NCBI GenBank assembly: GCA_963768055.1
Contig: CAVYGN010000002.1
Location: 1,408,001-1,472,000, forward strand
Reading direction: 5' to 3'
Length of the DNA: 64,000 bases
Origin: an uncultured Spirochaetota bacterium
Lineage (GTDB): Bacteria; Spirochaetota; Brevinematia; Brevinematales; JAOACQ01
Shown here: positions 38,590 to 51,935 of the stretch, in pieces
How positions within the stretch are numbered: position 1 is the stretch's first letter
Layout: the number at the start of each line of letters is the position of its first letter
The notes under the pieces: generated by a model
Databases searched by the model: none
Told to the model about the DNA's origin: nothing
What the model saw: the letters and a program-made list of their open reading frames with translations, nothing else
Translations under genes and position numbers: made by a program

Positions 38590-39348
38590 ATGCCTGACAG
38601 AAGAAGGATCGACGATAATCCGGGCGACCTTATGAGGTGGCTTCTGACCTATTCCGACATGATAACGCTGCTTTTGCTGTTTTTTATCGTTTTGTACTCT
38701 CTCTCCGTTGTGTCACAAAAAAAATTCGAACAGATTATCGAATCCCTGGGCACTGTTTTCGGAGGGGGGAAGCCCGGCATTATGATCCAAGAGAATACCT
38801 CAATCGAAAGCATCACCCCTGAAAATCAGCCTTATTCCGGAAAATACCCCCTCTCAAGCAAAAGAGCGCATGAGCAGGCGTTAAGCTTTGAAAAAACGAT
38901 TTCCGCCCTTCGCCCTCTCGTAAGTTCGAGAAAGGTCAGGGTCCAGCTTGATGAAAGAGGGCTCGTCATTACTCTTTCATCAGATATATATTTCGATTCC
39001 GGTTCGGCCGAATTGAAAGACGAGGGCAAGGATGTCCTCGAGAAAATTTATCCGGCGCTCAGACAGCTCTCTAACAATATAAGGGTCGAGGGCAATGCCG
39101 ACGATGTCCAGATGAACCCGGAGCTGGCAGTTACGCCGAATCCTTCAAAGTTTTCATCGAACTGGGAATTGGCCTCTCAGCGGTCGATCAATGTGCTTAA
39201 GTTCCTGGTTTCCGGTGGAGTCGACCCGAAAAGGACATATTCGGTCTCGTACGGCGATGAAAAACCTATCGAACCTAACAAAGACCCCGAAAGCCGGGCG
39301 TTTAACAGAAGGGTGGATATTGTCGTCGTCACTGAAGGCGGGGAATAG
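38590..39348 (+). CDS. motB: Flagellar stator MotB
   Basis: WLLTYSDMITLLL.FF TM motif; OmpA-like domain with SNWEL...R and NRRVDI. Confidence 0.95.
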   Translation: MPDRRRIDDNPGDLMRWLLTYSDMITLLLLFFIVLYSLSVVSQKKFEQIIESLGTVFGGGKPGIMIQENTSIESITPENQPYSGKYPLSSKRAHEQALSFEKTISALRPLVSSRKVRVQLDERGLVITLSSDIYFDSGSAELKDEGKDVLEKIYPALRQLSNNIRVEGNADDVQMNPELAVTPNPSKFSSNWELASQRSINVLKFLVSGGVDPKRTYSVSYGDEKPIEPNKDPESRAFNRRVDIVVVTEGGE

Positions 39349-39408
39349 GGAACTTCCGCTAAGCCATGCAAAGAAATGCAAAGTATTGATTTTGACTTTG
39401 ACTGTCGA

Positions 39409-39822
39409 CTATCGACTGAATTGATGAGACATCGGCATAAAAGGGGATTCGGGATTGACAGTCAGCGTCTCGTTTGACATATCGATTACGACATCCATGT
39501 CTTCCATAGGAATCTGGCCCAACAAAATGGGGGCGCCGGGGCTTTCTATCATAACGTTGCAATTTGTATTTCTTTTAAGCGCAGAAACGAAAACATGAAC
39601 CACTGAATCAATATTTTTGATTACCGTTTTACCATCTGCGTATTTAACGGTTTTTTTATCAACGATCTCAAGCCCTAAAGTTTGAGCAAGATATTCCGAG
39701 ATTGACAGCATTCTTGCCCCGCTGTCAACCACGGCCTCGGTTTCTATCTGACGTGGGTTATCTGTTTTATTTGCGATATCGGCATAATTCGTAATGATGA
39801 TTTTTGTTTTGATCTGTCCCAC
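39409..39822 (-). CDS. Clan AA (retropepsin-like) aspartic protease
   Basis: VVDSGA catalytic motif and ILLG..PME.MD; GTG start after GGAGG. Confidence 0.8.
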   Translation of the reverse strand: MGQIKTKIIITNYADIANKTDNPRQIETEAVVDSGARMLSISEYLAQTLGLEIVDKKTVKYADGKTVIKNIDSVVHVFVSALKRNTNCNVMIESPGAPILLGQIPMEDMDVVIDMSNETLTVNPESPFMPMSHQFSR

Positions 39823-40206
39823 AAAACCTCCATAGTGCAGACAAACATTTTTATAATTCTAAATAAATTTAAATAATTTGTCAAATGCACTGGTTAGGGA
39901 TGCGGGAAATTCCATCGCAAAGCTGCCAAGAACGCTAAGGGGTTTGAGAGTTTGAAGTTGAGGGGCTATCCGCGAAGCCAAGAAATGAAAAGGGCGGGGA
40001 AAACGGAAACACGGATTGCACAGATAACATCCATCCGTGAAGATGCTTTGATAGAAATAAATAATATAATTAGTTACGGATTTCACAGATTATTCTTTTG
40101 TATCCGAAAGTGGATATAAGAGTCGCTATGGAATGAGGAAAATACGAGTAAACTTCGCCGTGAAGCCGTGAAATTTGATTTATAAAAACAATAATATAAA
40201 TATATA

Positions 40207-40247
40207 TTGACACTATTTACAAAGTGCAGTAGACTACTAAATGTAGT
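40207..40247 (+). promoter_or_regulatory. Sigma70 promoter overlapped by two imperfect palindromes (operator-like)
   Basis: TTGACA-N17-TAGACT; CACT-N8-AGTG (40211-26) and ACTAC-N5-GTAGT (40233-47). Confidence 0.6.
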
Positions 40248-40270
40248 AAATTATAAAAAGAGGTATTTAA

Positions 40271-40756
40271 ATGAATATTCCTACTAACTTAAAACATAAA
40301 CCTGTGATTATATCAGAAAATTATGATTCTGTCGATGGGAAATATGCATCTGATTCAGATGCCAAAGGTCTATCATTAGGACTTGCTCAATGGAATAGAG
40401 GAAGGAAAATAGACATTTCCGCAAAGATTTGGCGTCATACTGGAGATAAATGGTCAAGACAATCCGAAGAGATGCCTTTACATAGGGTTCTTGATCTAGC
40501 AATAATAATATGCAAAACTAAACTGTATTTTAAAAAATCATATGATGCTATTGAGGATGATGATAAGTACCCAAATTACCCAAAATTAAATGAAATAATA
40601 CCTTTGCAAGAAAAATCTTTAAATATTACGACTTGCTCAAATAATGAACATATTGAAGAAGATATTATGACATTTAAAAAATGCTTAAAAGAAGATGATG
40701 AATTTTTAAATGAACGTTTTAAATTATTATCAATCTTACTAAAAGAACTTGATTAA
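40271..40756 (+). CDS. DUF6530-like protein
   Basis: MxIPTxLKHKPV..ENY..VDG...SDAKGLSLGLAQW...DISAK.WR.TG.KWSRQSEE.PLHRVLDLAI, recognised from memory of the family and not searched. Confidence 0.7.
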   Translation: MNIPTNLKHKPVIISENYDSVDGKYASDSDAKGLSLGLAQWNRGRKIDISAKIWRHTGDKWSRQSEEMPLHRVLDLAIIICKTKLYFKKSYDAIEDDDKYPNYPKLNEIIPLQEKSLNITTCSNNEHIEEDIMTFKKCLKEDDEFLNERFKLLSILLKELD

Positions 40757-40896
40757 ATAAACTCCTCGGAACTCTGTCCCGAGATATTGTTCAAAACATT
40801 GGGGAACCTTTTTTAAAAAAGAAGCGAGGTAGAGCTTCGGAAAATTAACCGTAGAGATTAATGAGCTTGAAATGAATGATTTAAGGTGGTGCTAAA

Positions 40897-43542
40897 ATGG
40901 AAGAAAAAGAAAATATCTTTAAAAATGGATCAATTTGGCTTAATGCCGATTTTCACTTACATACAAGGGCTGATAAGCAATTCAAATATATAGGTGAAGA
41001 AAATAATTTTGTCATGGAGTATGTCGAACAGTTAAAGAAAACTGACACCAGAATCGGTGTAATTACTAATCATAATAAATTTGAATTAACAGAATTTAAA
41101 GACCTTCGTAAGAATAGTTTAAAAGAAAATATCTATCTATTACCGGGTGTAGAACTTTCAGTAGACGATGGCTCAAATGGAATTCATGCATTAATCATTT
41201 TCGAGTATGATACTTGGTTAAAAAATAATGATAATTTTATTGACCAGTTTTTAAAATCTGCTTTTGAAGGGATTGCTAATTATGAAAACAGTAGTACAAG
41301 ATGCAAATATAATCTATCAGAATTATTTAAAAAATTAGAAGAACATAGGAAAGAAGGGCGTGATACATTTGTTATAATGGCCCATATTGAACAAGATTGT
41401 GGTTTTTGCAAGGAACTTGATGGCGGTAGGATAACACCAATGGTACATGACGAACATTTTAAAAGGAATGTATTAGCATTTCAGAAAATTAGGACAAATG
41501 ATTTAAAATCCAATTTAATAACCTGGTTTGGAAATGAAAAAGACATACCTGCTTTTGTTGAAGGTTCAGATTGTAAAAAGATTGATGAAATAGGGTCACG
41601 TATACAAAAGGGTGTAGATGGTAATATAAATGAAAAAAAATGTTTTATAAAAATAGGAGATTATAATTTTGAAGCGATTAAATATGCATTAACTGATAAA
41701 GACAATCGTATTTCATATGACAAGCCTCCTTTAATAAATAATGCCTATATAAAATCAATATCGTTTGAAGGAGGTTTGCTTGATGGGAAACAGATTAATT
41801 TTTCGCCTGAACTTAATAATTTTATCGGAATTAGGGGAAGTGGAAAGTCGTCAATTATAGAGATATTACGATATACTCTTGGAATTTCTCTGGGCAACCA
41901 GGCTACAGATAAAGATTATAAAAACGATCTTATTGGATATGTACTTAAAAGTGGAGCTAAGGTTACTGTAGTGGTTGTAAATGAATACAAAAAAGAATAT
42001 CGCATTGAAAAAATATATGGTCAAAAAGAAGATGTCTTTGAAAGCAACGTAAGAATTGATGTTTCAATTAACGCAATATTTAAAGTACCTGTCTATTTCG
42101 GACAAAAAGATCTTTCAAACAAAGATATCAATTTTGAGGCCGATCTGGTAAAAAAACTTATTGGTAATCGTTTAGAAGAAATACGTTCCAAAATCAATGC
42201 AAAGGCTGATGATATAGAAGATATAGTCAACAAATTTAAAAAACTGGAAAACCTTGAGGACTTAAAAAAAGAGACAAATGAAGTAATAAAAAATTCTGAA
42301 GAAAAACTAAAAATATTTAAAGAAAAAGGGGTTAATGATAAACTACATCAGCAAAGCAACTTTGATTCCGATATTTCAATAATAAGCGATATTTACAAAG
42401 CATTAACAACATTTAAAGCTGATTTTAAAGTATTAATTGAAAATTATACTGTCTTTTTCAGAGATACCATTTTTAATTCTGAAGAAAATTTAGAAATCTT
42501 TCAAAATTTAAAAACAATATTCGATAGCATTAAATCAGAGTTTAATAAATTAAACGATATAAACAGAAATATTGACTTATCCGTATCAAAATTTGATGTG
42601 CTTAAAAAAAATCTTATGGAAAAAAAAGAAAGTTTGAAGGAAGAATTTGCAAAAATAAAAAGAGAAATTAATATACCCAATCTTAATCCAGATGATTTTC
42701 TCAAGTTAAACAGAATTATTGAAACTTCAAAATTAAAACTGATTGAAATTGAAAAATCAGAAACTAAAAGAAGGGATTATCTGAAGTCTTTAAATGACAA
42801 AATATCTGAATTAAACAATCTATGGCTTGAAGAATTTAAAATTGTGCAAAATGAAGTTCAAAGAATTAATGATTATGAAAGTGCCCTCTCTATTACAGCC
42901 GAATTTAAAAACAGACGAGACAATTTTTTTAATAAAATAAGACAAACTTTTAAAGGGAGTGGTATTACAGAGTCAAATTATAATAAAATATGCGATACTT
43001 ATAAAGACTTTGTAGAAATATACAGGGATAAGGAAAAATTAAATAATATTCTAAACGAAAACCACCTTGCTGAATTTAATAAAAAATTTATGGAAAATCT
43101 TTCCGAGTTGATAACTTATCAGGTGGAAACAAAATATACTATTAAATATAATAATAAACCATTAAAAGACCATTCGTTAGGTCAGCGTGCTACCGCTTTG
43201 ATTCTTTTTCTTCTTGCTCAAAAAGAAACGGATGTCTTAATAATTGATCAACCTGAAGATGATTTAGATAATCAGACAATTTATGAAGATGTAATCAAAC
43301 AGATTAAATTATTAAAAGGTGAAATGCAATTTATATTTGCTACACATAATGCAAATATTCCTGTGCTTGGCGACAGTGAGAAAATTATTTCATGTAATTA
43401 TTCTGAATTAAATATTGAAACAAATGAGGGTACTATCGATACCCCTGGAACACAAAAACAAATAGTAACAATCATGGAAGGTGGGGAAGAAGCTTTTAAT
43501 AGAAGAAAGAATATTTATGAAATATGGAGTTTAAAAAAATGA
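40897..43542 (+). CDS. PHP-domain / coiled-coil ABC-ATPase (Ppl / TrlF-like anti-phage protein)
   Basis: PHP motifs DFHLHT, ITNHN, PGVEL, GIHAL, MAH and GSD; Walker A GIRGSGKS; long coiled coil; signature SLGQR; Walker B LIIDQPEDDLDN; H-loop ATHN. Confidence 0.9.
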   Translation: MEEKENIFKNGSIWLNADFHLHTRADKQFKYIGEENNFVMEYVEQLKKTDTRIGVITNHNKFELTEFKDLRKNSLKENIYLLPGVELSVDDGSNGIHALIIFEYDTWLKNNDNFIDQFLKSAFEGIANYENSSTRCKYNLSELFKKLEEHRKEGRDTFVIMAHIEQDCGFCKELDGGRITPMVHDEHFKRNVLAFQKIRTNDLKSNLITWFGNEKDIPAFVEGSDCKKIDEIGSRIQKGVDGNINEKKCFIKIGDYNFEAIKYALTDKDNRISYDKPPLINNAYIKSISFEGGLLDGKQINFSPELNNFIGIRGSGKSSIIEILRYTLGISLGNQATDKDYKNDLIGYVLKSGAKVTVVVVNEYKKEYRIEKIYGQKEDVFESNVRIDVSINAIFKVPVYFGQKDLSNKDINFEADLVKKLIGNRLEEIRSKINAKADDIEDIVNKFKKLENLEDLKKETNEVIKNSEEKLKIFKEKGVNDKLHQQSNFDSDISIISDIYKALTTFKADFKVLIENYTVFFRDTIFNSEENLEIFQNLKTIFDSIKSEFNKLNDINRNIDLSVSKFDVLKKNLMEKKESLKEEFAKIKREINIPNLNPDDFLKLNRIIETSKLKLIEIEKSETKRRDYLKSLNDKISELNNLWLEEFKIVQNEVQRINDYESALSITAEFKNRRDNFFNKIRQTFKGSGITESNYNKICDTYKDFVEIYRDKEKLNNILNENHLAEFNKKFMENLSELITYQVETKYTIKYNNKPLKDHSLGQRATALILFLLAQKETDVLIIDQPEDDLDNQTIYEDVIKQIKLLKGEMQFIFATHNANIPVLGDSEKIISCNYSELNIETNEGTIDTPGTQKQIVTIMEGGEEAFNRRKNIYEIWSLKK

Positions 43543-44708
43543 ATGCTATTGAGTTATTGGACATTATAAGTGCTGGCGAAACAAGCAGGGTACAGTTTAA
43601 AGTACAAATTACCTCACCTGATGATCTTGCATCTGAAATGATAGCATTTTCAAATTCTCTTGGGGGTATTATCCTGGTTGGGGTTAGTAATACAGGTCAA
43701 ATTGTTGGCTTATCATATAACGATATACAGGATACGGCAATACTGGCGGGTAATGTTGCTACTGATAAAATTATACCAACGGTTTATATTCAAACCGAGG
43801 TTATTACTTTTGAAGTATCTGGAGAAAGGAAAAATGTTCTTATTATCTATATTGAAGAAGGAATAAATAAACCTTATAAAACTAGAAATCTTGTCGTATG
43901 GAAAAAGCAAGGTTCAGATAAGCGTAGAGTGACTGACAGTAATGAATTATTAAGGCTTTATCAAAGTAGTGGCAACCTTCTTGCTGACGAAATGGAGGTG
44001 GCCAATACTTCTATTGCGGATATTGATATTGACAAATTAAACCAATTTACTATAAAAGCAATGGAAAAATCATTAGAAGAAATCGGACTAGATGTAGACC
44101 AAATTGTAAAAAATATTAATATTATGAGAAATAACCGCCTTACACTAGGCGGACTTTTATTTTTTGGTAAAAATCCACAGAAATATAAACCCGTATTTTG
44201 TATAAAAGCCATTTCTTTTTTTGGAAATGATATAGAGGGCTTAGAATACAGGAATAGTATAGATATTAACGGTACAATGCCAGAATTATTTGAAAAAGGC
44301 ATGGAATTTTTCAATAGCAATCTAAGACACACTCAACAGGGCCAAAAATTTAATTCTCTTGGTTCGCTTGAAATATCTAAAATTGCTATTGAAGAAGTAC
44401 TTCAGAATGCATTAATACATAGAGATTACTTGAAAAATGCTCCAATTAGAGTCATGATTTTTGACAATCGAATTGAGTTGATAAGTCCAGGGGCATTACC
44501 AAATAGTCTTTCTGTAGAGAATATCAAAGCCGGTAATGCAGTTGTTAGAAATAACTTGTTAGCATCTTATTGTGTAATAACAATGCCGTATAGAGGTTTT
44601 GGTTCTGGTATTAGACGAGCTATCAAAGAACAACCAAACATCGAGTTTTTTAATGACATTGAAGGTGAGCAATTTATAGTTAAGATAGCAAGGTCGATGA
44701 CAAGCTAG
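43539..44708 (+). CDS. Schlafen/AlbA_2 domain plus HATPase_c_4 (RecG-C-like) protein
   Basis: GETSRVQFK, AFSNSLGG.ILVGV, EVLQNALIHRDY, IFDNRIELISPG.LP, RN.LL and GSGI motifs; ATGA overlap with the upstream ATPase stop; RBS GGAG. Confidence 0.9.
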   Translation: MNAIELLDIISAGETSRVQFKVQITSPDDLASEMIAFSNSLGGIILVGVSNTGQIVGLSYNDIQDTAILAGNVATDKIIPTVYIQTEVITFEVSGERKNVLIIYIEEGINKPYKTRNLVVWKKQGSDKRRVTDSNELLRLYQSSGNLLADEMEVANTSIADIDIDKLNQFTIKAMEKSLEEIGLDVDQIVKNINIMRNNRLTLGGLLFFGKNPQKYKPVFCIKAISFFGNDIEGLEYRNSIDINGTMPELFEKGMEFFNSNLRHTQQGQKFNSLGSLEISKIAIEEVLQNALIHRDYLKNAPIRVMIFDNRIELISPGALPNSLSVENIKAGNAVVRNNLLASYCVITMPYRGFGSGIRRAIKEQPNIEFFNDIEGEQFIVKIARSMTS

Positions 44709-44831
44709 ATATTTGTCCTGAACGACTATAGCTATAACCTATACATTGGTCAACATACAACAACCTGTTATGAAACCAAAGTCATTATTTAAATTTAAGT
44801 ATTTTTATATTTATAGGATAGTTAAGGAAAA

Positions 44832-46586
44832 TTAATCAATACTTGGTAAAAAATCCTTCAATGGATTTTTTCCCTTAGCCTTATCTTTATCAATTTCTTT
44901 TAATATTTCATCTTTAACTTTATCAATGTTAGGTTTTGATTTTAAAAATCTCTGCGGATTAGATTTTTGCAATTCATTGTTGTAAATTAAAATAGTAGTA
45001 ATATAATCTATCATCTTTTGAGTCCTGTCATTTAATTGATTATTCAATAATTTGCGAGCAATATTTGAATCATAATAACCATATTTTTTCTTTATTATAG
45101 TCCAAATAAAATACATATAAATTAAGTTTGAGTAAAGTAAAAATTCTTTCGATAAAATTTCTTTTCTTTTTTCATCAGTAATTTCTTCTGTTTTAACTAA
45201 ATAATATTCTTGTTCTTTGTATTTTTGAATATTATTGTTGACTTTATCAAAAATATGATTTGGTAATAATATTTCATAAAAAGTAATATCTTTTTTAAAA
45301 ATTTGATCATAATGTTCAGCAAAAAGATTTTCACGATAACGTCTAGCATATATTGGATCGAACAAAGAAGAATATATAACTTGAGCTGTTCTTACCATTT
45401 CAATTACTTTATTATTATAATCTTTTTTGATAACTTTTCTATAGAGATTTTTTTCACCTTCTTTTCTTTCATAAAAATATGGAGGATCTAGTTTTTTTAA
45501 ATCATCTTTTATTTTTTTTTGTATACCATCATTTGAACGTAATTGATATGCTGAAACTGGATTCTGTGAATTGGTATATAAAGTGATATCATCTGTATCT
45601 TTTAAATTTGCTTGAATGATCCTAATCAACAAATAAACATCTTTTGGAATTTCTTTATTCTCATAAAATTTTTCATAAGCTTCAAAAATACTTACGGTAG
45701 TTTGACAACCATTTATTATTTGAGGGCCAGTAACTGATAAACTATTTTTATCATTTACAAAATTTTCTCTTATTAGTGAACATACTATTGTAATTCCATT
45801 ATTGTAATACCAAAAGTTTTTCCTATCTTTTTGTTCACCTATTGTATCTATTATTTGAGCATTTATTGTTCCTGATTTAGCGCCTTTATAGTATCTAATA
45901 TTTCTATCAAAGAGTTTATTTTTATAAATTTCATATATTTTTGCTAAAATATCGGCTTTAATCGAAAATATATAAGAAGGATAAATACCTAAATTATTTT
46001 TAAAATATTGATTTTCAATTATTGGAAATTCAACTGTTTCATCGGCTAAGGGATTTCCTTCGGAGATAGAAGCCTCATAAGTACTAATAATATCATCTAT
46101 ATCATGATAATATAATTGGATTCTATTGTTATAATCTTGAATATTATTAAATGTTATACGTTCTTTTTTTGACGAATCATTAAAAGTACCGGCAATAAAA
46201 TAATGTAATTCAACAACTCCTTCAGATTCCCAAACATCTTTAAATGATTCTGCCACATCAATTATTTGGGATTTTGAACTCAATTGAGAGGGATTTTTTA
46301 AAGTGTTTAAACAAGAATAGAATAATACAATATCTTTTTCACTTATTTCCTTGCGGCAATCATTTGAATATTTAGCTTGAATTAATATAAGTCTATTTTT
46401 CTCATATGTAATATATGCATCAATTCTTTTGTCTTCGCCATTATCAGTAATATAATCATTTACATCTGAATCCATAATATCATAATATGAATTTAATATC
46501 CACTGGATAAATGCTCTTCCTTCAGAAATTTTTTCTTTTTTACATATTGAATTAATATGATCTTTAAAACTCATTAAATTATTCAT
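44832..46586 (-). CDS. AIPR (abortive infection phage resistance) family protein
   Basis: N-terminal D..IDA....IQAKY; LF.RNIRYY, FWYYNNGITIVC, PQIINGCQT and TNSQNPV motifs. Confidence 0.9.
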   Translation of the reverse strand: MNNLMSFKDHINSICKKEKISEGRAFIQWILNSYYDIMDSDVNDYITDNGEDKRIDAYITYEKNRLILIQAKYSNDCRKEISEKDIVLFYSCLNTLKNPSQLSSKSQIIDVAESFKDVWESEGVVELHYFIAGTFNDSSKKERITFNNIQDYNNRIQLYYHDIDDIISTYEASISEGNPLADETVEFPIIENQYFKNNLGIYPSYIFSIKADILAKIYEIYKNKLFDRNIRYYKGAKSGTINAQIIDTIGEQKDRKNFWYYNNGITIVCSLIRENFVNDKNSLSVTGPQIINGCQTTVSIFEAYEKFYENKEIPKDVYLLIRIIQANLKDTDDITLYTNSQNPVSAYQLRSNDGIQKKIKDDLKKLDPPYFYERKEGEKNLYRKVIKKDYNNKVIEMVRTAQVIYSSLFDPIYARRYRENLFAEHYDQIFKKDITFYEILLPNHIFDKVNNNIQKYKEQEYYLVKTEEITDEKRKEILSKEFLLYSNLIYMYFIWTIIKKKYGYYDSNIARKLLNNQLNDRTQKMIDYITTILIYNNELQKSNPQRFLKSKPNIDKVKDEILKEIDKDKAKGKNPLKDFLPSID

Positions 46587-46798
46587 GTAATACCCCTAAA
46601 ACTGCTAGTAATCCTTTTCCAATAACTACCTGCATTACATTTTAGGCTTATTTATCATTTATGGCAAAAATATACGAAATAACAAAACTCCATTTTCCGT
46701 CCTTCGCGTCCTCCGCTCCACTTTGCGTCCTTTGCGTCTTAGCGGTGATCCCCGTCTCCATTAGCGTGGCTTAGCGGACAGTCTTTCCCCTTAATTAT

Positions 46799-46826
46799 TT
46801 GACAAACCTCTGTTTTCTTTTATAAT
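46799..46826 (+). promoter_or_regulatory. Sigma70 promoter for rplM-rpsI
   Basis: TTGACA-N16-TATAAT. Confidence 0.8.
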
Positions 46827-46853
46827 ATATGGAAATTTTTCGGGTGGTAACGG

Positions 46854-47282
46854 ATGAAGACCTTTGTATTAAAAGCTTCCCAGATCAAAAGGCAGTATTT
46901 TGTCATAGACGCGCTCGGGAAACCCTTAGGCAGGATAGCCTCCCGCACCGCGCAGGTTCTGATGGGCAAGCATAAACCGACTTACACTAAAAACCTTGAC
47001 GACGGTGATTTTGTAATTATAGTCAACGCCGATAAATTCATACTTACGGGCAGGAAACCTAAAAACAAGATCTATTATCGATATTCGGGCTATGTAGGCG
47101 GCATGCACGAAACCACTTTCAAGGTTATGATGCAGAAAAAGCCATTATTTCCCCTTGAAAAAGCTGTAAAGGGAATGCTTCCAAGAAATAACCTGGCTAA
47201 AAAGATGATTAAAAAACTCTATCTTTATGCCGGCCCGGTTCATGATTTAAAAAATATCAAAACAAGCCCGCTCGAAATATAA
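46854..47282 (+). CDS. rplM: 50S ribosomal protein L13
   Basis: IDA.G..LGR.AS, GKHKP.Y, GD.V..VNA and AVKGMLP motifs. Confidence 0.98.
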   Translation: MKTFVLKASQIKRQYFVIDALGKPLGRIASRTAQVLMGKHKPTYTKNLDDGDFVIIVNADKFILTGRKPKNKIYYRYSGYVGGMHETTFKVMMQKKPLFPLEKAVKGMLPRNNLAKKMIKKLYLYAGPVHDLKNIKTSPLEI

Positions 47283-48717: not shown

Positions 48718-50319
48718 TTAAAGCCTGATCCTGTCTTCGACCACGTAAGCCTTGCCGTTCTTTGCATTGATTATCACTTCTTTAATGCCTTCAACGAGCT
48801 TGCCTTTGACGGGCGCATAGAACCTGACAAGAGCCACGTAGATGGAACTGCCCGGTGTAATTTTAAAAGGCGTCGATGGGGTGTATTCGAATTTATCCAG
48901 GTACATGACATCACGGGCCGTCTCGCCGCTGAAATGTTTGTGTTTTACAGCTGCGTCCCTGGCGGCTTCCCTTTCGGCAGCGTCATGCGGATCTAAAACC
49001 GATATGTCGTTTTCAAAATTCAGCTGGGGGACAATGCGGTCCGGATCCAGTATAATGACGCCTTTAGCGGCTGAAATTTCATATGTCCGTTTGCCGTTCC
49101 AGCTTAATTTTAATTTTAATCCGTTTACAAGCGCGCTGATATCAGGGATTTCATCCATATTTCTGACTGCCCCATTGCGCTTGATTGATATGTCGGGAGT
49201 ATGCGAACAGACAGGCAGAAAATATTTAGCTATCTCGCAAACCGAACTATCGGCCCCGGCGTAGATACAAATTTCCGAAAGGGAAGGGCCGGCATTGGAA
49301 TCCTTTTTACCCGTAACATAAGTTTTTATATAATTAGTATATTTTTCAATTCCCGCTGTAAAAAAAGCGAAGTGGAGCATAGAGAAATTTTTCAGCATGC
49401 TGCTCACATCGCAATCGATCTCTCCTGTCGTGGTAAAACCATTGCTGATGACATTCTCATAATAAGAACGGCCGGGTACAGGGACCAGGTAAGCCGCGTC
49501 AGTCCTTATTTGCCCTTTATTGTCTACCAGCCTCTTGCAGAGATCGGTGTAAGCGAAAAGCTCGCCCCCTTCGAATTTAAGCAATTCCTTGAGCCATAAT
49601 CTGAGGAAAGCATACTTTATTTCTTCAGGTGTCGAACCCCCGGTAATCAGGAAGAGACTGTCCTTTTCAAAACGGACCATACCGGGAAGGGCCTGAAGAT
49701 TAATAATAATAATATTCTTTTGATCGAGGGGAAAAATGAGATTTTTATATGCTTCAAAGATATTATCAATATCCTTGATGGTCGAAATGTTTTTTCCATG
49801 GCAATAGACATCATAAGAAAGAGCTCCAACTGTATCGGATGTTTCACTATACCTGCCGCAAATCAACAGGGGTTTTTCATCGCTATCGAATATAAAACCG
49901 TCTCCGTTCCTGTCGGTGTAAGGGAAGATCAATCCTCTAAATCCTTCGGGGAGGCTTAATCCCGCGGTTACGGATCCTTTTTCATCGGGCAGGACCAGCC
50001 AGTCATCGGAATAAAATTCCTGGTTAATGATTGGGAGAGTATAAATTAGAATTATCCTGCCTCCGTAATTGGATATGACATTGTCGATAAGCAATGTATG
50101 GCCGTTCTGATAGAAATTCACCGATCCGTTCGACAGGGAACTGATGCTTAAAAGCCTTGCCCTTCCCGGCAGGGTCAGTTTGATGGAATTACTTTCGAAA
50201 GTATAATCGGCCTGAACTTTTAGAATACTTTGTGTCAACATAAGGCTCATCCTGGAGTGATATGGAAAAGTGAGGTTTTTTAAGGAGATGAGTATTAAAA
50301 CACAAATTACATATTTCAT
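48718..50319 (-). CDS. Secreted hypothetical protein (possibly a degenerate aminopeptidase-like scaffold)
   Basis: Signal peptide; ILDPD...PQLN.END C-terminal motif; no HEXXH. Confidence 0.55.
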   Translation of the reverse strand: MKYVICVLILISLKNLTFPYHSRMSLMLTQSILKVQADYTFESNSIKLTLPGRARLLSISSLSNGSVNFYQNGHTLLIDNVISNYGGRIILIYTLPIINQEFYSDDWLVLPDEKGSVTAGLSLPEGFRGLIFPYTDRNGDGFIFDSDEKPLLICGRYSETSDTVGALSYDVYCHGKNISTIKDIDNIFEAYKNLIFPLDQKNIIIINLQALPGMVRFEKDSLFLITGGSTPEEIKYAFLRLWLKELLKFEGGELFAYTDLCKRLVDNKGQIRTDAAYLVPVPGRSYYENVISNGFTTTGEIDCDVSSMLKNFSMLHFAFFTAGIEKYTNYIKTYVTGKKDSNAGPSLSEICIYAGADSSVCEIAKYFLPVCSHTPDISIKRNGAVRNMDEIPDISALVNGLKLKLSWNGKRTYEISAAKGVIILDPDRIVPQLNFENDISVLDPHDAAEREAARDAAVKHKHFSGETARDVMYLDKFEYTPSTPFKITPGSSIYVALVRFYAPVKGKLVEGIKEVIINAKNGKAYVVEDRIRL

Positions 50320-50327
50320 ATCGGCCC

Positions 50328-51935
50328 CTATAATAATATCCTGATTCCGGCATTAACGGTGAACCCGCCGTCAGGGACATCCGGCCTGTCGAAATTAAGC
50401 TCATTGAGAATGTTTTTGAAGATAAGTTCGGCAAAGATATCCTTGCTCAGGCCGACCGAAAACGACACATCCCATATCCATGCGGCGTCAAGGTAGGCGC
50501 CAACCTGGTATTCCTGCCTGTCTTTATATGTCATTTTGGTCAGGGCGGATAAGCCTAAATTTGTATAGTTGTATTCTATGCTCAAAGAAATGGAATTCCG
50601 GTTAAAAAAGAGGAGGTCATCCTGGCTGGGGAGCTTGAAAATATAAGAGGCGTCGACAACGAAATTATCGACGGCGATCAGTTCGAGAATTGCTTCCGCT
50701 TTCAGGACATTGACGTTGGAAATAGCATTGAGAAAGTAGAGGTCGTTACCGGAATCATAATTATAATCCAGGTATAAAGAATATTGTTCCAAACTCACGT
50801 TTCCCCTCAGATTGATAAAATCAAAGGGTGATAATTGGATTGAATAAAGATATACCCATTTTTCCTCGGGATATGTAAAGTGATAATCTATCTGGTTATC
50901 ATCAACGATCCTGTCTATTGAAAAGTTATTCTGCTCTCCATAAAGCCCCCCCTTCATAGATATGAAGCTTGAATATTTATAAAAAATCAGCAGATTCGGG
51001 GCCCAGAAAAATCCTTTGTAATCATACACGTCGAATTCCAAACCTCCCTGTACGGCAAAATTTCCTGACAGAGGAATTTTATTGAGCACGCCGATCCTTC
51101 CGAATTGCAGCAAATCGTTATTGTAGTCCGAGTACCTGTACTTCCCTGAAATTTTAAGAAAGTTATCCCTTCCCCAATCGGTTTCGAGATCGATATTTCC
51201 GCCAACATCCTGGAGTATTTTGTCGTTATATCCTGAAAGCAATTGATGATCCAGGTCAAGGTAATTGTAATAACCTTCTGTTTTCAATATTGTATTCATG
51301 CTGATCTCATAGAGTGCACCTAGGCTTACAGGTATGTTTTTTTTGGATTCGATCACGTTTGAGATATTGGTATAAAGCCCTAAGTCTCTGATATAATAAC
51401 CGAAAGAGCTGGTAATGTCGAGGTTGGAATTAACGGAATAAATAATATCTCCGTTAAAGTCGTCAATATTCATTGAAGTATTGAAATAATTTGTACCCTG
51501 GAAGCCTGTGTTATCTCTCATATTCCTGACATAAGTGAACAGGTAATTGAAATTATCCGATTTTTTACCCGTATTCATTTCAGCAATGATATTGTTATAA
51601 GACCCGTAATATAATTTGAAGCTTGAAAGTGAAAAATCTTCGTTTTGCCTCTGTTTAGTCATCTCAGCCTTGAACTTATCGCTTTCTTTGGATTTGGTAA
51701 GTTCATCGATATCGATGCCGACATCGTTCGAGGGACGTCCCTGGAGGATAGATTCGTTCTGGTTTGCAAGCGGGACTTTGCTTTCATCTTCAATGCTGAG
51801 CTTGATATCGGGAATTATGATTTTTGAATTGCCGCTTTCCTGTAGAAGCTCGTTTGTCGATGAATTAGTTTCTGAGGAAGCGATCGAAGCGGCAAAGAAC
51901 AGAAAGGCCGAGGCAATTAATAAAATGTTTCTCAT
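50328..51935 (-). CDS. Putative outer-membrane beta-barrel protein
   Basis: Signal peptide; many Tyr/Phe amphipathic strands; C-terminal NIL.....GFTVNAGIRILL resembles a TonB-receptor C-terminus. Confidence 0.6.
   Translation of the reverse strand: MRNILLIASAFLFFAASIASSETNSSTNELLQESGNSKIIIPDIKLSIEDESKVPLANQNESILQGRPSNDVGIDIDELTKSKESDKFKAEMTKQRQNEDFSLSSFKLYYGSYNNIIAEMNTGKKSDNFNYLFTYVRNMRDNTGFQGTNYFNTSMNIDDFNGDIIYSVNSNLDITSSFGYYIRDLGLYTNISNVIESKKNIPVSLGALYEISMNTILKTEGYYNYLDLDHQLLSGYNDKILQDVGGNIDLETDWGRDNFLKISGKYRYSDYNNDLLQFGRIGVLNKIPLSGNFAVQGGLEFDVYDYKGFFWAPNLLIFYKYSSFISMKGGLYGEQNNFSIDRIVDDNQIDYHFTYPEEKWVYLYSIQLSPFDFINLRGNVSLEQYSLYLDYNYDSGNDLYFLNAISNVNVLKAEAILELIAVDNFVVDASYIFKLPSQDDLLFFNRNSISLSIEYNYTNLGLSALTKMTYKDRQEYQVGAYLDAAWIWDVSFSVGLSKDIFAELIFKNILNELNFDRPDVPDGGFTVNAGIRILL

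Follow-up and report, generated by a model that had tools for sequence, protein, structure and literature searches.

In this study, we report that two overlapping genes of an uncultured Spirochaetota bacterium (contig CAVYGN010000002.1, positions 1,408,001 to 1,472,000; this whole stretch of 64,000 nucleotides is called the window below) are a copy of trlF-trlG, a pair already named in the "temperature restriction locus" (TRL) of Photorhabdus. The identification rests on the match of the larger protein with the NCBIfam family NF045780, "TrlF family AAA-like ATPase" (509.3 bits against a curated equivalog cut-off of 350, over residues 10-874 of the protein and positions 1-943 of the model), and on the full-length identity of both proteins to their counterparts encoded by the Yersinia ruckeri plasmid pYR3, 39% for TrlF and 44% for TrlG. 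The original prediction, made from the sequence alone, had taken the pair for a two-gene system not yet characterised. This does not hold: the genes are those of the TRL operon, TrlF is a family named by NCBI, and the pYR3 record is annotated by the Prokaryotic Genome Annotation Pipeline (PGAP) as "TrlF family AAA-like ATPase" beside "RNA-binding domain-containing protein". The pair is therefore not a new system. The evidence below supports trlF and trlG being a conserved, co-transferred unit with overlapping start and stop codons. On balance, we slightly favour the view that this horizontally acquired cassette encodes a two-protein module that arrests growth upon infection or DNA damage.

The trlR-trlF-trlG operon was described as the TRL of Photorhabdus laumondii DJC by Hapeshi et al. 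2020 (PMC7554251), where trlF is presented as a "histidinol phosphatase" gene and trlG as a gene carrying Alba_2 (14-128) and HATPase_c_4 (about 298-365) domains. Photorhabdus clones growing at 36 °C were found to have missense, stop or insertion sequence (IS) mutations in trlG; no trlF mutation is reported among the suppressors described there. Deletion of the operon likewise permits growth at 36 °C, the whole operon supplied on a plasmid restores the restriction, and transcription of the locus increases upon temperature up-shift. The same article names homologous loci on pYR3 and in Pseudospirillum japonicum. We found that the positions mutated in Photorhabdus TrlG are conserved columns of both of its domains (S16, A36, R129, P321, N338 and G357 in the numbering of the window protein), and that the TrlG of Allopseudospirillum japonicum (locus L087) has the wild-type residue at 13 of the 13 mutated positions.

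The window pair and the TRL operon have the same two proteins, gene order, overlap and domain layout. They differ in host phylum and in genomic site, the window pair lying in an island of low guanine-cytosine (GC) content between motB and rplM, and also in the third gene of the Photorhabdus operon, trlR. A 79-aa pYR3 protein was taken, on account of its length and position, as the presumed TrlR homologue; with this protein as the query, no tblastn match in the window went below E = 3.1, and none was obtained at 1e-3 in 79 loci encoding TrlF relatives (38-77% identity) that were collected by scanning one genome per species. In the literature library searched, "TrlG" or "temperature restriction locus" in this sense was found in the Hapeshi study only; the search returned no paper on Schlafen and PHP proteins together in a phage-defence context and no printed claim of TRL as a defence system. 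It had been foreseen that the pair might prove to be catalogued already; this is the case for the name TRL but not for the defence systems of PADLOC v2.0, which has no model for trlF-trlG.

TrlF is composed of a PHP domain and of an ABC ATPase head split by a coiled coil (Table 1), an architecture that had been read from the open reading frame (ORF) and is backed by both the NCBIfam match and the fold search. Pfam gave a sub-threshold match with AAA_23 only. The AlphaFold2 (AF2) model, which has a predicted local distance difference test (pLDDT) score of 86.3, shows a barrel for the PHP domain and an ATPase head in two halves, between which some 250 residues form a coiled-coil insert, with long helices at residues 411-448, 453-476, 480-523, 532-590 and 598-659. 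Foldseek searches with this model returned the heads of MukB, Smc, Rad50, RecF, JetC and LmuB, as well as the PHP protein TM0559; the match of the PHP domain with 2anu_C has a TM-score of 0.64, normalised to the target. No solved structure of TrlF or Ppl was found by PDB sequence searches. In an alignment of 30 sequences, the PHP residues H20, H22, D26, H59, E86, H97, H163, E222 and D225 are invariant, as are G311, R313, G314, S315, G316, K317 and S318 of Walker A, the ABC signature from H759 to R764 and Walker B from D784 to D791; the H-loop residue H817 is invariant too. The last PHP motif does read SDCK, as first noted. Since the usual His, at the position after D-x, is found in 0 of the 15 sequences of our first alignment, and since E222, G223 and D225 are invariant in the 30 sequences, SDCK is by these alignments a trait of the TrlF family and not a decay of the window copy.

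The ATPase had been set beside Ppl, which turns out to be a relative only: TrlF reaches 145.6 bits (1.5e-42) with the NCBIfam Ppl model NF042955, against a cut-off of 1000, and the best stretch covers residues 743-870 only. In PADLOC, its best match is likewise a partial Ppl match (118.6 bits, 6.1e-35, residues 463-870). Weak matches to LmuB (2.2e-09) and mad3 (2.5e-16) stand well below it, and the AriA, PtuA and GajA profiles gave no TrlF match at E<=0.01. As judged from these profiles, TrlF is not a member of the PARIS, Septu, Gabija or Lamassu ATPase families.

TrlG carries a Schlafen domain (SLFN_AlbA_2, PF04326, 6.8e-18) followed on the same chain by a GHKL ATPase domain (HATPase_c_4, PF13749, 1.1e-11), both over the Pfam cut-offs and both as initially assigned. 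An alternative in-frame ATG upstream, at 43524, is possible and would give a protein of 394 aa; the residue aligned with the 43539 start is Met in 69 of 72 aligned proteins. With the AF2 model of TrlG (pLDDT 89.3), Foldseek matched 3lmm over the whole length, mammalian SLFN14, 13, 5, 11 and 12 and the tRNase domain of SAMD9 in the N-terminal half, and histidine kinases and PDK in the C-terminal half; 3lmm was also the sole match of a PDB sequence search. The PADLOC pAgo model matches residues 40-325. The association of Schlafen and GHKL domains is the "Schlatpase" supradomain in the terms of Kuzmenko et al., and the E314/N318 Mg-ATP site of RzAgo corresponds to the GHKL core of TrlG (10.64898/2026.05.29.728809). 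In the classification of Perez Taboada et al. 2026 (PMC13056530), pSlfn1 is the "His_Kinase_A" class, and the supplement lists the pYR3 TrlG as pSlfn1. One file of this supplement has "Gao_Ppl__PplA" as a defence neighbour 40 times, at least 30 of these being pSlfn1 rows. The words PHP, ABC and operon are missing from the main text of the article.

The genome of the window encodes a further Schlafen-GHKL protein (G000:C1:1311982-1313016, locus L089), which is 25% identical to TrlG, has a canonical E-x4-D-x-K motif and possesses a C-terminal extension. Its gene is far from both TrlF genes of this genome, the second of which is described below.

Bacterial and human Schlafen nucleases require the motif E-x4-(D/E)-x-K, and the RorSlfn5 E15A/D20A and RzAgo D32A variants are inactive (PMC13056530; 10.64898/2026.05.29.728809). 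The window TrlG departs from this canonical motif, its own being E-x4-Q-x-K. Among 72 TrlF-linked orthologues, E14 and K21 are present in all (72/72), position 19 is Gln in 70 and Glu in two (L017 and L054), and the third acidic position is Asp in 62 and Asn in eight, the window protein (N51) being one of the latter. The Gln form is also that of the pYR3 and L087 proteins, and the canonical E-x4-E-x-K is found in five more distant TrlF-linked partners. The original proposal of a Schlafen tRNA nuclease is weakened by this replacement of the second catalytic carboxylate and by the Asn of the window protein. Nonetheless, the altered site seems still to matter, as suggested by the Photorhabdus S16N mutation, which falls within the motif. 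Schlafen-GHKL proteins with an Ex4QxK motif, 40-46% identical to TrlG and extended by a winged helix-turn-helix (HTH) or Fic-like_C tail, were also found on IMG/VR contigs devoid of TrlF. Two such tailed proteins (L113 4956-6512 and L115 5001-6404) are encoded one between hsdR and hsdM-hsdS and the other between a PglX-like methylase and PglZ-BrxL.

The pairing of the two genes was counted in 73 of the 79 loci, the six that end less than 1150 bases past trlF being excluded. An intact TrlG orthologue (38-72% identity, 381-447 aa) is encoded directly downstream and on the same strand in 71 loci, and the partner is present in 72 when a split copy is included. In the latter, on the Algoriphagus halophilus chromosome (L059), trlG is divided into two ORFs of 200 and 244 aa and is probably a frameshifted pseudogene. 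Locus L048 lacks TrlG; at a distance of 1.75 kb it encodes another Schlatpase, one that carries a Fic-like_C tail. At the position aligned with 43539, the trlG start and the trlF stop overlap in 60 of 71 loci; in 30 of these the overlap is of exactly four bases. In the window, GGAG precedes the ATG at 43539 by nine bases; the 881-aa ORF, the ribosome-binding site, the ATGA overlap and their coordinates had all been given correctly. Pairwise TrlF and TrlG distances correlate with r = 0.756 (58 loci and the window), a value reached in 0 of 2000 permutations. Shared descent of the cassette suffices to explain this correlation, which tells us that the genes travel together and not that the proteins touch. 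The pairing, whose co-occurrence across genomes was among the checks proposed along with the original prediction, is far beyond chance. We note that TrlG is near-universal in the TrlF subfamily of the window, not in the whole TrlF family.

The wider family was surveyed in a sample of the phylum, in which TrlF proteins over the cut-off occur in 16 of 401 genomes and in 0 of the 4 congeners. Thirteen TrlF loci had room downstream, the second copy of the same genome included: a Schlatpase adjoins TrlF in five, a broken one lies 1.9 kb off in one, and none is found in seven. Other neighbours in this sample are Type I, Type IIG and helicase genes, DUF3800 and TCAD9 genes downstream, and a gene for a HATPase_c_3 protein upstream. 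The second TrlF-family gene of the genome (G000:C2:1862327-1866677; locus L090 5313-5855 and 7396-9690) is interrupted by an IS3-type element (HTH_Tnp_1 and rve ORFs, L090 5890-7406), with a PHP part that scores 122.6 bits on one side and, on the other, a remainder that passes the cut-off with 365.1 bits. An unannotated 482-aa ORF lies directly upstream of it.

Relatives of the pair are spread over many phyla and on conjugative plasmids, and 61 plasmid records carry TrlG orthologues. Eighteen of the 79 loci encode a Type III methylase (N6_N4_Mtase, about 630 aa); the mod gene ends at most 700 bases upstream of the pair in 14 of the 79, and a res homologue (ResIII and RE_endonuc, about 874 aa if intact) is found downstream in 13 loci. 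The trlF-trlG pair is often nested between Type III mod and res.

In the window, the pair is part of a five-gene insertion (Table 1). The composition shared by the two genes, already pointed out from the letters, extends over about 40.0-47.0 kb, where the GC content is 0.23-0.33 versus about 0.38-0.53 in the flanks; the AIPR/AbiU-type gene, convergent with trlG, has the lowest GC content of the window (0.23). Among four genomes of the same genus (loci L108-L111), the gap between motB and rplM is of 236 and 297 bases in two, and in the other two it is filled with unrelated non-defence cargo of 4.8 kb (GNAT, TM2, cupin, HAD and DnaJ-like genes) and 7.6 kb (LuxR-type, PMT_2, two ABC permeases and GH3 genes). 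At E<=1e-5, none of the five island genes has a homologue in these four genomes, and the retropepsin-like gene is not at the motB-rplM site in any of them. No tRNA gene was found at the island borders. A scan for promoters and terminators gave 68 promoter-like sites versus 45 expected, a count that the AT-rich DNA makes uninformative. The trlF-trlG cassette is best read as a horizontal acquisition that went in between motB and rplM together with other genes of defence type.

Neither of the neighbours closest to the pair is an extra component of it: DUF6530, which has no PADLOC match either, is ruled out because the 79 related loci gave no homologue of it at 1e-5, and AIPR because they gave none of it. 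The GNAT, cupin, HAD, ABC-permease and GH3 cargo of the two congeners rules out motB-rplM as a dedicated defence hotspot. Further along the window, two adjoining ORFs on the minus strand (48718-50319, 533 aa, and 50328-51935, 535 aa) matched nothing in Pfam at E<=0.001.

Table 1. Coordinates, in the window, of the trlF-trlG pair, its motifs and the surrounding insertion.
Feature	Position	Strand	Description and basis
trlF	40897..43542	+	881 aa; PHP phosphoesterase fused to Rad50/SMC-like ABC ATPase with coiled-coil insert
PHP domain, about aa 10-275	40924..41721	+	30-sequence alignment; Foldseek match
Last PHP motif E-G-S-D-C-K, aa 222-227	41560..41577	+	Without the usual His; family alignments
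Walker A GIRGSGKSS, aa 311-319	41827..41853	+	30-sequence alignment
Coiled-coil insert splitting the ATPase head, aa 411-659	42127..42873	+	AF2 model
ABC signature HSLGQRA (aa 759-765) and Walker B VLIIDQPEDDLD (aa 780-791)	43171..43269	+	Invariant alignment columns
GGAG, then ATGA	43526-43529, then 43539-43542	+	trlG start overlaps trlF stop
trlG	43539..44708	+	389 aa, no HTH tail; Schlafen (AlbA_2) and GHKL ATPase, "Schlatpase", pSlfn1 class
Schlafen motif E14-T-S-R-V-Q19-F-K21	43578..43601	+	72-sequence alignment
GHKL core: N-box E286...N290, H294-R-D296, S-P317-G318, G353-x-G355-x-G357	44379..44693	+	Invariant in 30 sequences
Insertion	39349..46853		7.5 kb between motB and rplM; five genes
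motB	38590-39348		Left flank of the insertion
Retropepsin-like aspartyl protease gene	39409-39822	-	gag-asp_proteas 2.2e-07; left edge of the insertion
DUF6530 gene	40271-40756	+	Pfam PF20140 3.3e-63; 140 bases upstream of trlF
AIPR/AbiU-type abortive-infection gene	44832-46586	-	Pfam AIPR 1.7e-38; PADLOC AbiU 1.4e-44
rplM	46854-47282		Right flank of the insertion

Several known systems resemble trlF-trlG in part. TrlF and Ppl have a common build, an N-terminal PHP domain followed by a coiled-coil ABC/Rad50-like ATPase, and their homology is detectable; however, TrlF is far below the Ppl cut-off and belongs to another curated family, and while Ppl was described as a single gene, TrlF has its partner in 72 of 73 loci, a difference in gene content and not in activity. 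The primary paper on Ppl is reportedly that of Xu et al. (Mol Cell 2026). In the anti-phage Ppl of E. coli (Gao_Ppl), a PHP exonuclease acting 3'-5' on single-stranded DNA is joined to a Rad50-like ATPase; 3'-OH ends activate the protein, nucleoside triphosphates (NTPs) inhibit it, and it is toxic when RecBCD is lacking (PMC12904381, PMC13648713). With the Schlatpase and pSlfn1 proteins, TrlG shares two domains in the same order and conserved GHKL Mg-ATP residues, but its chain has no Argonaute, Ig-like or DUF262 sensor, the candidate sensor being the separate protein TrlF, and its motif has Gln in place of the catalytic Asp/Glu. In SLFN-GHKL proteins, ATP binding leads to tetramer formation and tRNA cleavage (10.64898/2026.05.29.728809).

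PARIS (AriA-AriB), Septu (PtuA-PtuB), Lamassu (LmuB-LmuA), Gabija and OLD also combine a Rad50/SMC-like ATPase with a nuclease-type partner whose gene lies next to it; these differ from TrlF-TrlG by an effector fold unlike that of TrlG, and by the nuclease domain that the TrlF ATPase itself carries. PrrC and RloC are encoded within restriction loci, PrrC in those of Type I; trlF-trlG, too, is often nested inside a restriction-modification operon.

From these likenesses, the following way of working can be proposed for the growth-arrest module that we slightly favour. TrlF, built like Ppl, would read DNA ends and/or nucleotide levels and could degrade DNA, while TrlG, by analogy with RzAgo, would oligomerise on ATP binding and then act on RNA. 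TrlG would be the growth-arresting effector and TrlF the sensor that restrains or tunes it; TrlF might itself be a further effector, directed at DNA. Overlap of the stop and start codons would allow TrlF and TrlG to be made in a fixed proportion. The analysis establishes which family the proteins belong to, that the pair is conserved, that the ATPase and PHP motifs are intact and that the Schlafen motif is altered. That growth arrest depends on TrlG was shown by others (PMC7554251); an anti-phage role, a physical complex, a direction of control and a substrate of trlFG are what we infer. TrlF does not appear to be an obligate activator of TrlG, because no trlF suppressor was reported even though trlF is the larger target. 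The Photorhabdus genetics fit a TrlF that restrains TrlG until a trigger comes, and also fit a TrlF that is dispensable for the growth-arrest phenotype. Of the original prediction, the conserved unit stands, and the sensor-effector or toxin-regulator reading is plausible and fits the published genetics of TrlG, but an obligate activator role of TrlF does not agree with them.

Modelling of the complex, one of the checks that had been suggested, was carried out with TrlG and with residues 283-881 of TrlF, past the PHP domain. It gave a score of 0.53, the best of three controls being at 0.00, for a verdict of "weak support". Of 157 solved complexes, 116 passed the mark used, as did 2 of 215 mismatched pairs; those that passed at 0.60 or below were only 18 of the 157 solved complexes and both passing mismatches, and with our own alignments in the prediction these calibration counts hold only roughly. 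Between runs, at least 79% of the contacts are shared, and the pLDDT of the partner is at least 79.

That the two genes are mere neighbours brought together in a defence island, their ATGA overlap being incidental, can practically be dismissed. Unrelated genes are packed closely in defence islands, and here the pair does have two neighbours, DUF6530 and AIPR, whose association with it is not conserved; but the partner is kept directly downstream across 38-77% TrlF identity, and the 72 of 73 loci that retain it, the co-divergence and the overlap kept in 60 of 71 loci refute a chance neighbourhood. It is much less improbable, although still unlikely, that TrlF is the whole defence, a stand-alone DNA-end exonuclease like Ppl, and that TrlG is a catalytically dead nucleic-acid-binding ATPase regulating TrlF or its expression. 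Ppl indeed acts as a single gene (PMC12904381, PMC13648713), the catalytic (D/E) position is Gln in 70 of 72 TrlG proteins with Asn at the third acidic site in the window, the closest relatives of TrlG outside TrlF loci, which carry a winged-HTH or Fic-like_C tail, bear annotations as regulators, and no Schlatpase accompanies TrlF in 7 of 13 loci of the wider family. TrlG itself, however, has no HTH, and its GHKL ATP site is invariant. Moreover, in Photorhabdus, the arrest is lost by trlG mutations in both domains, including S16N in the motif, and was never reported to be lost via trlF mutations, though trlF is more than twice the length of trlG (PMC7554251).

Less probable again is a physiological switch that halts growth upon stress or a change of temperature, as first proposed for Photorhabdus, with no anti-phage role. 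It has in its favour the only phenotype shown by experiment, induction upon up-shift and growth at 36 °C once the operon is deleted (PMC7554251). It fits poorly with the patchy, horizontal spread of the genes (0 of 4 congeners, 16 of 401 genomes of the phylum, many phyla, 61 plasmid records), with the nesting of the pair in Type III mod/res and beside other restriction, BREX and Abi genes, with the position of the window pair in a low-GC island beside AbiU, and with the failure to find trlR, the proposed regulator, in the window or in the 79 loci. In addition, abortive-infection systems commonly make their hosts arrest themselves under stress as a side effect, which also counts against such a switch.

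For a two-protein growth-arrest module speaks the defence context of the pair, namely the low-GC island, the AIPR/AbiU neighbour, the patchy occurrence, the restriction genes and the plasmids. Other points weigh against it. Our searches found no published anti-phage test of trlFG, and the sole phenotype in print is a temperature-dependent growth arrest; PADLOC v2.0, as said, does not model the pair. With Q19 in place of the second carboxylate, and N51 in the window protein, TrlG may not be a canonical Mn/Mg-dependent RNase, and TrlG-like Ex4QxK proteins with an HTH tail exist without TrlF in Type I restriction-modification and BREX loci. The Schlatpase partner is not universal in the wider TrlF family, and the second TrlF-family gene of this very genome has no adjoining TrlG-like gene. 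The predicted complex is weak and concerns part of TrlF, as a monomer. Finally, of seven pSlfn genes for which results are given in PMC13056530, only two protected, a DUF262 fusion and an Ig-like fusion, and none of the histidine-kinase-type genes tested there did.

A more precise version of the growth-arrest module can be put forward tentatively, although we hold it to be somewhat less than an even bet: trlFG would be a two-protein abortive-infection system in which TrlF, sensing DNA ends and NTP levels as Ppl does, holds a Gln-variant Schlafen-GHKL effector in check, the temperature restriction of Photorhabdus being a case of autoimmunity. Because the pair often lies between Type III mod and res, it would serve as a back-up to restriction. 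The Gln-variant TrlG might arrest growth otherwise than by canonical tRNA cleavage, for instance through ATP-driven oligomers that would bind RNA and sequester it.

By itself, the result obtained for the window is ordinary, as it adds one more copy of a named cassette. The pair nonetheless joins two defence families that have been studied separately, the Ppl sensor-nuclease of DNA ends and NTPs and the bacterial Schlafens, and it ties them to a published phenotype that is unexplained, temperature restriction in an insect pathogen. Were trlFG a defence module, this would explain why many of the commonest bacterial Schlafens, those of the pSlfn1 class, adjoin Ppl-like genes, and it would provide a natural case of a Schlafen active site that has been altered and yet retained under selection.

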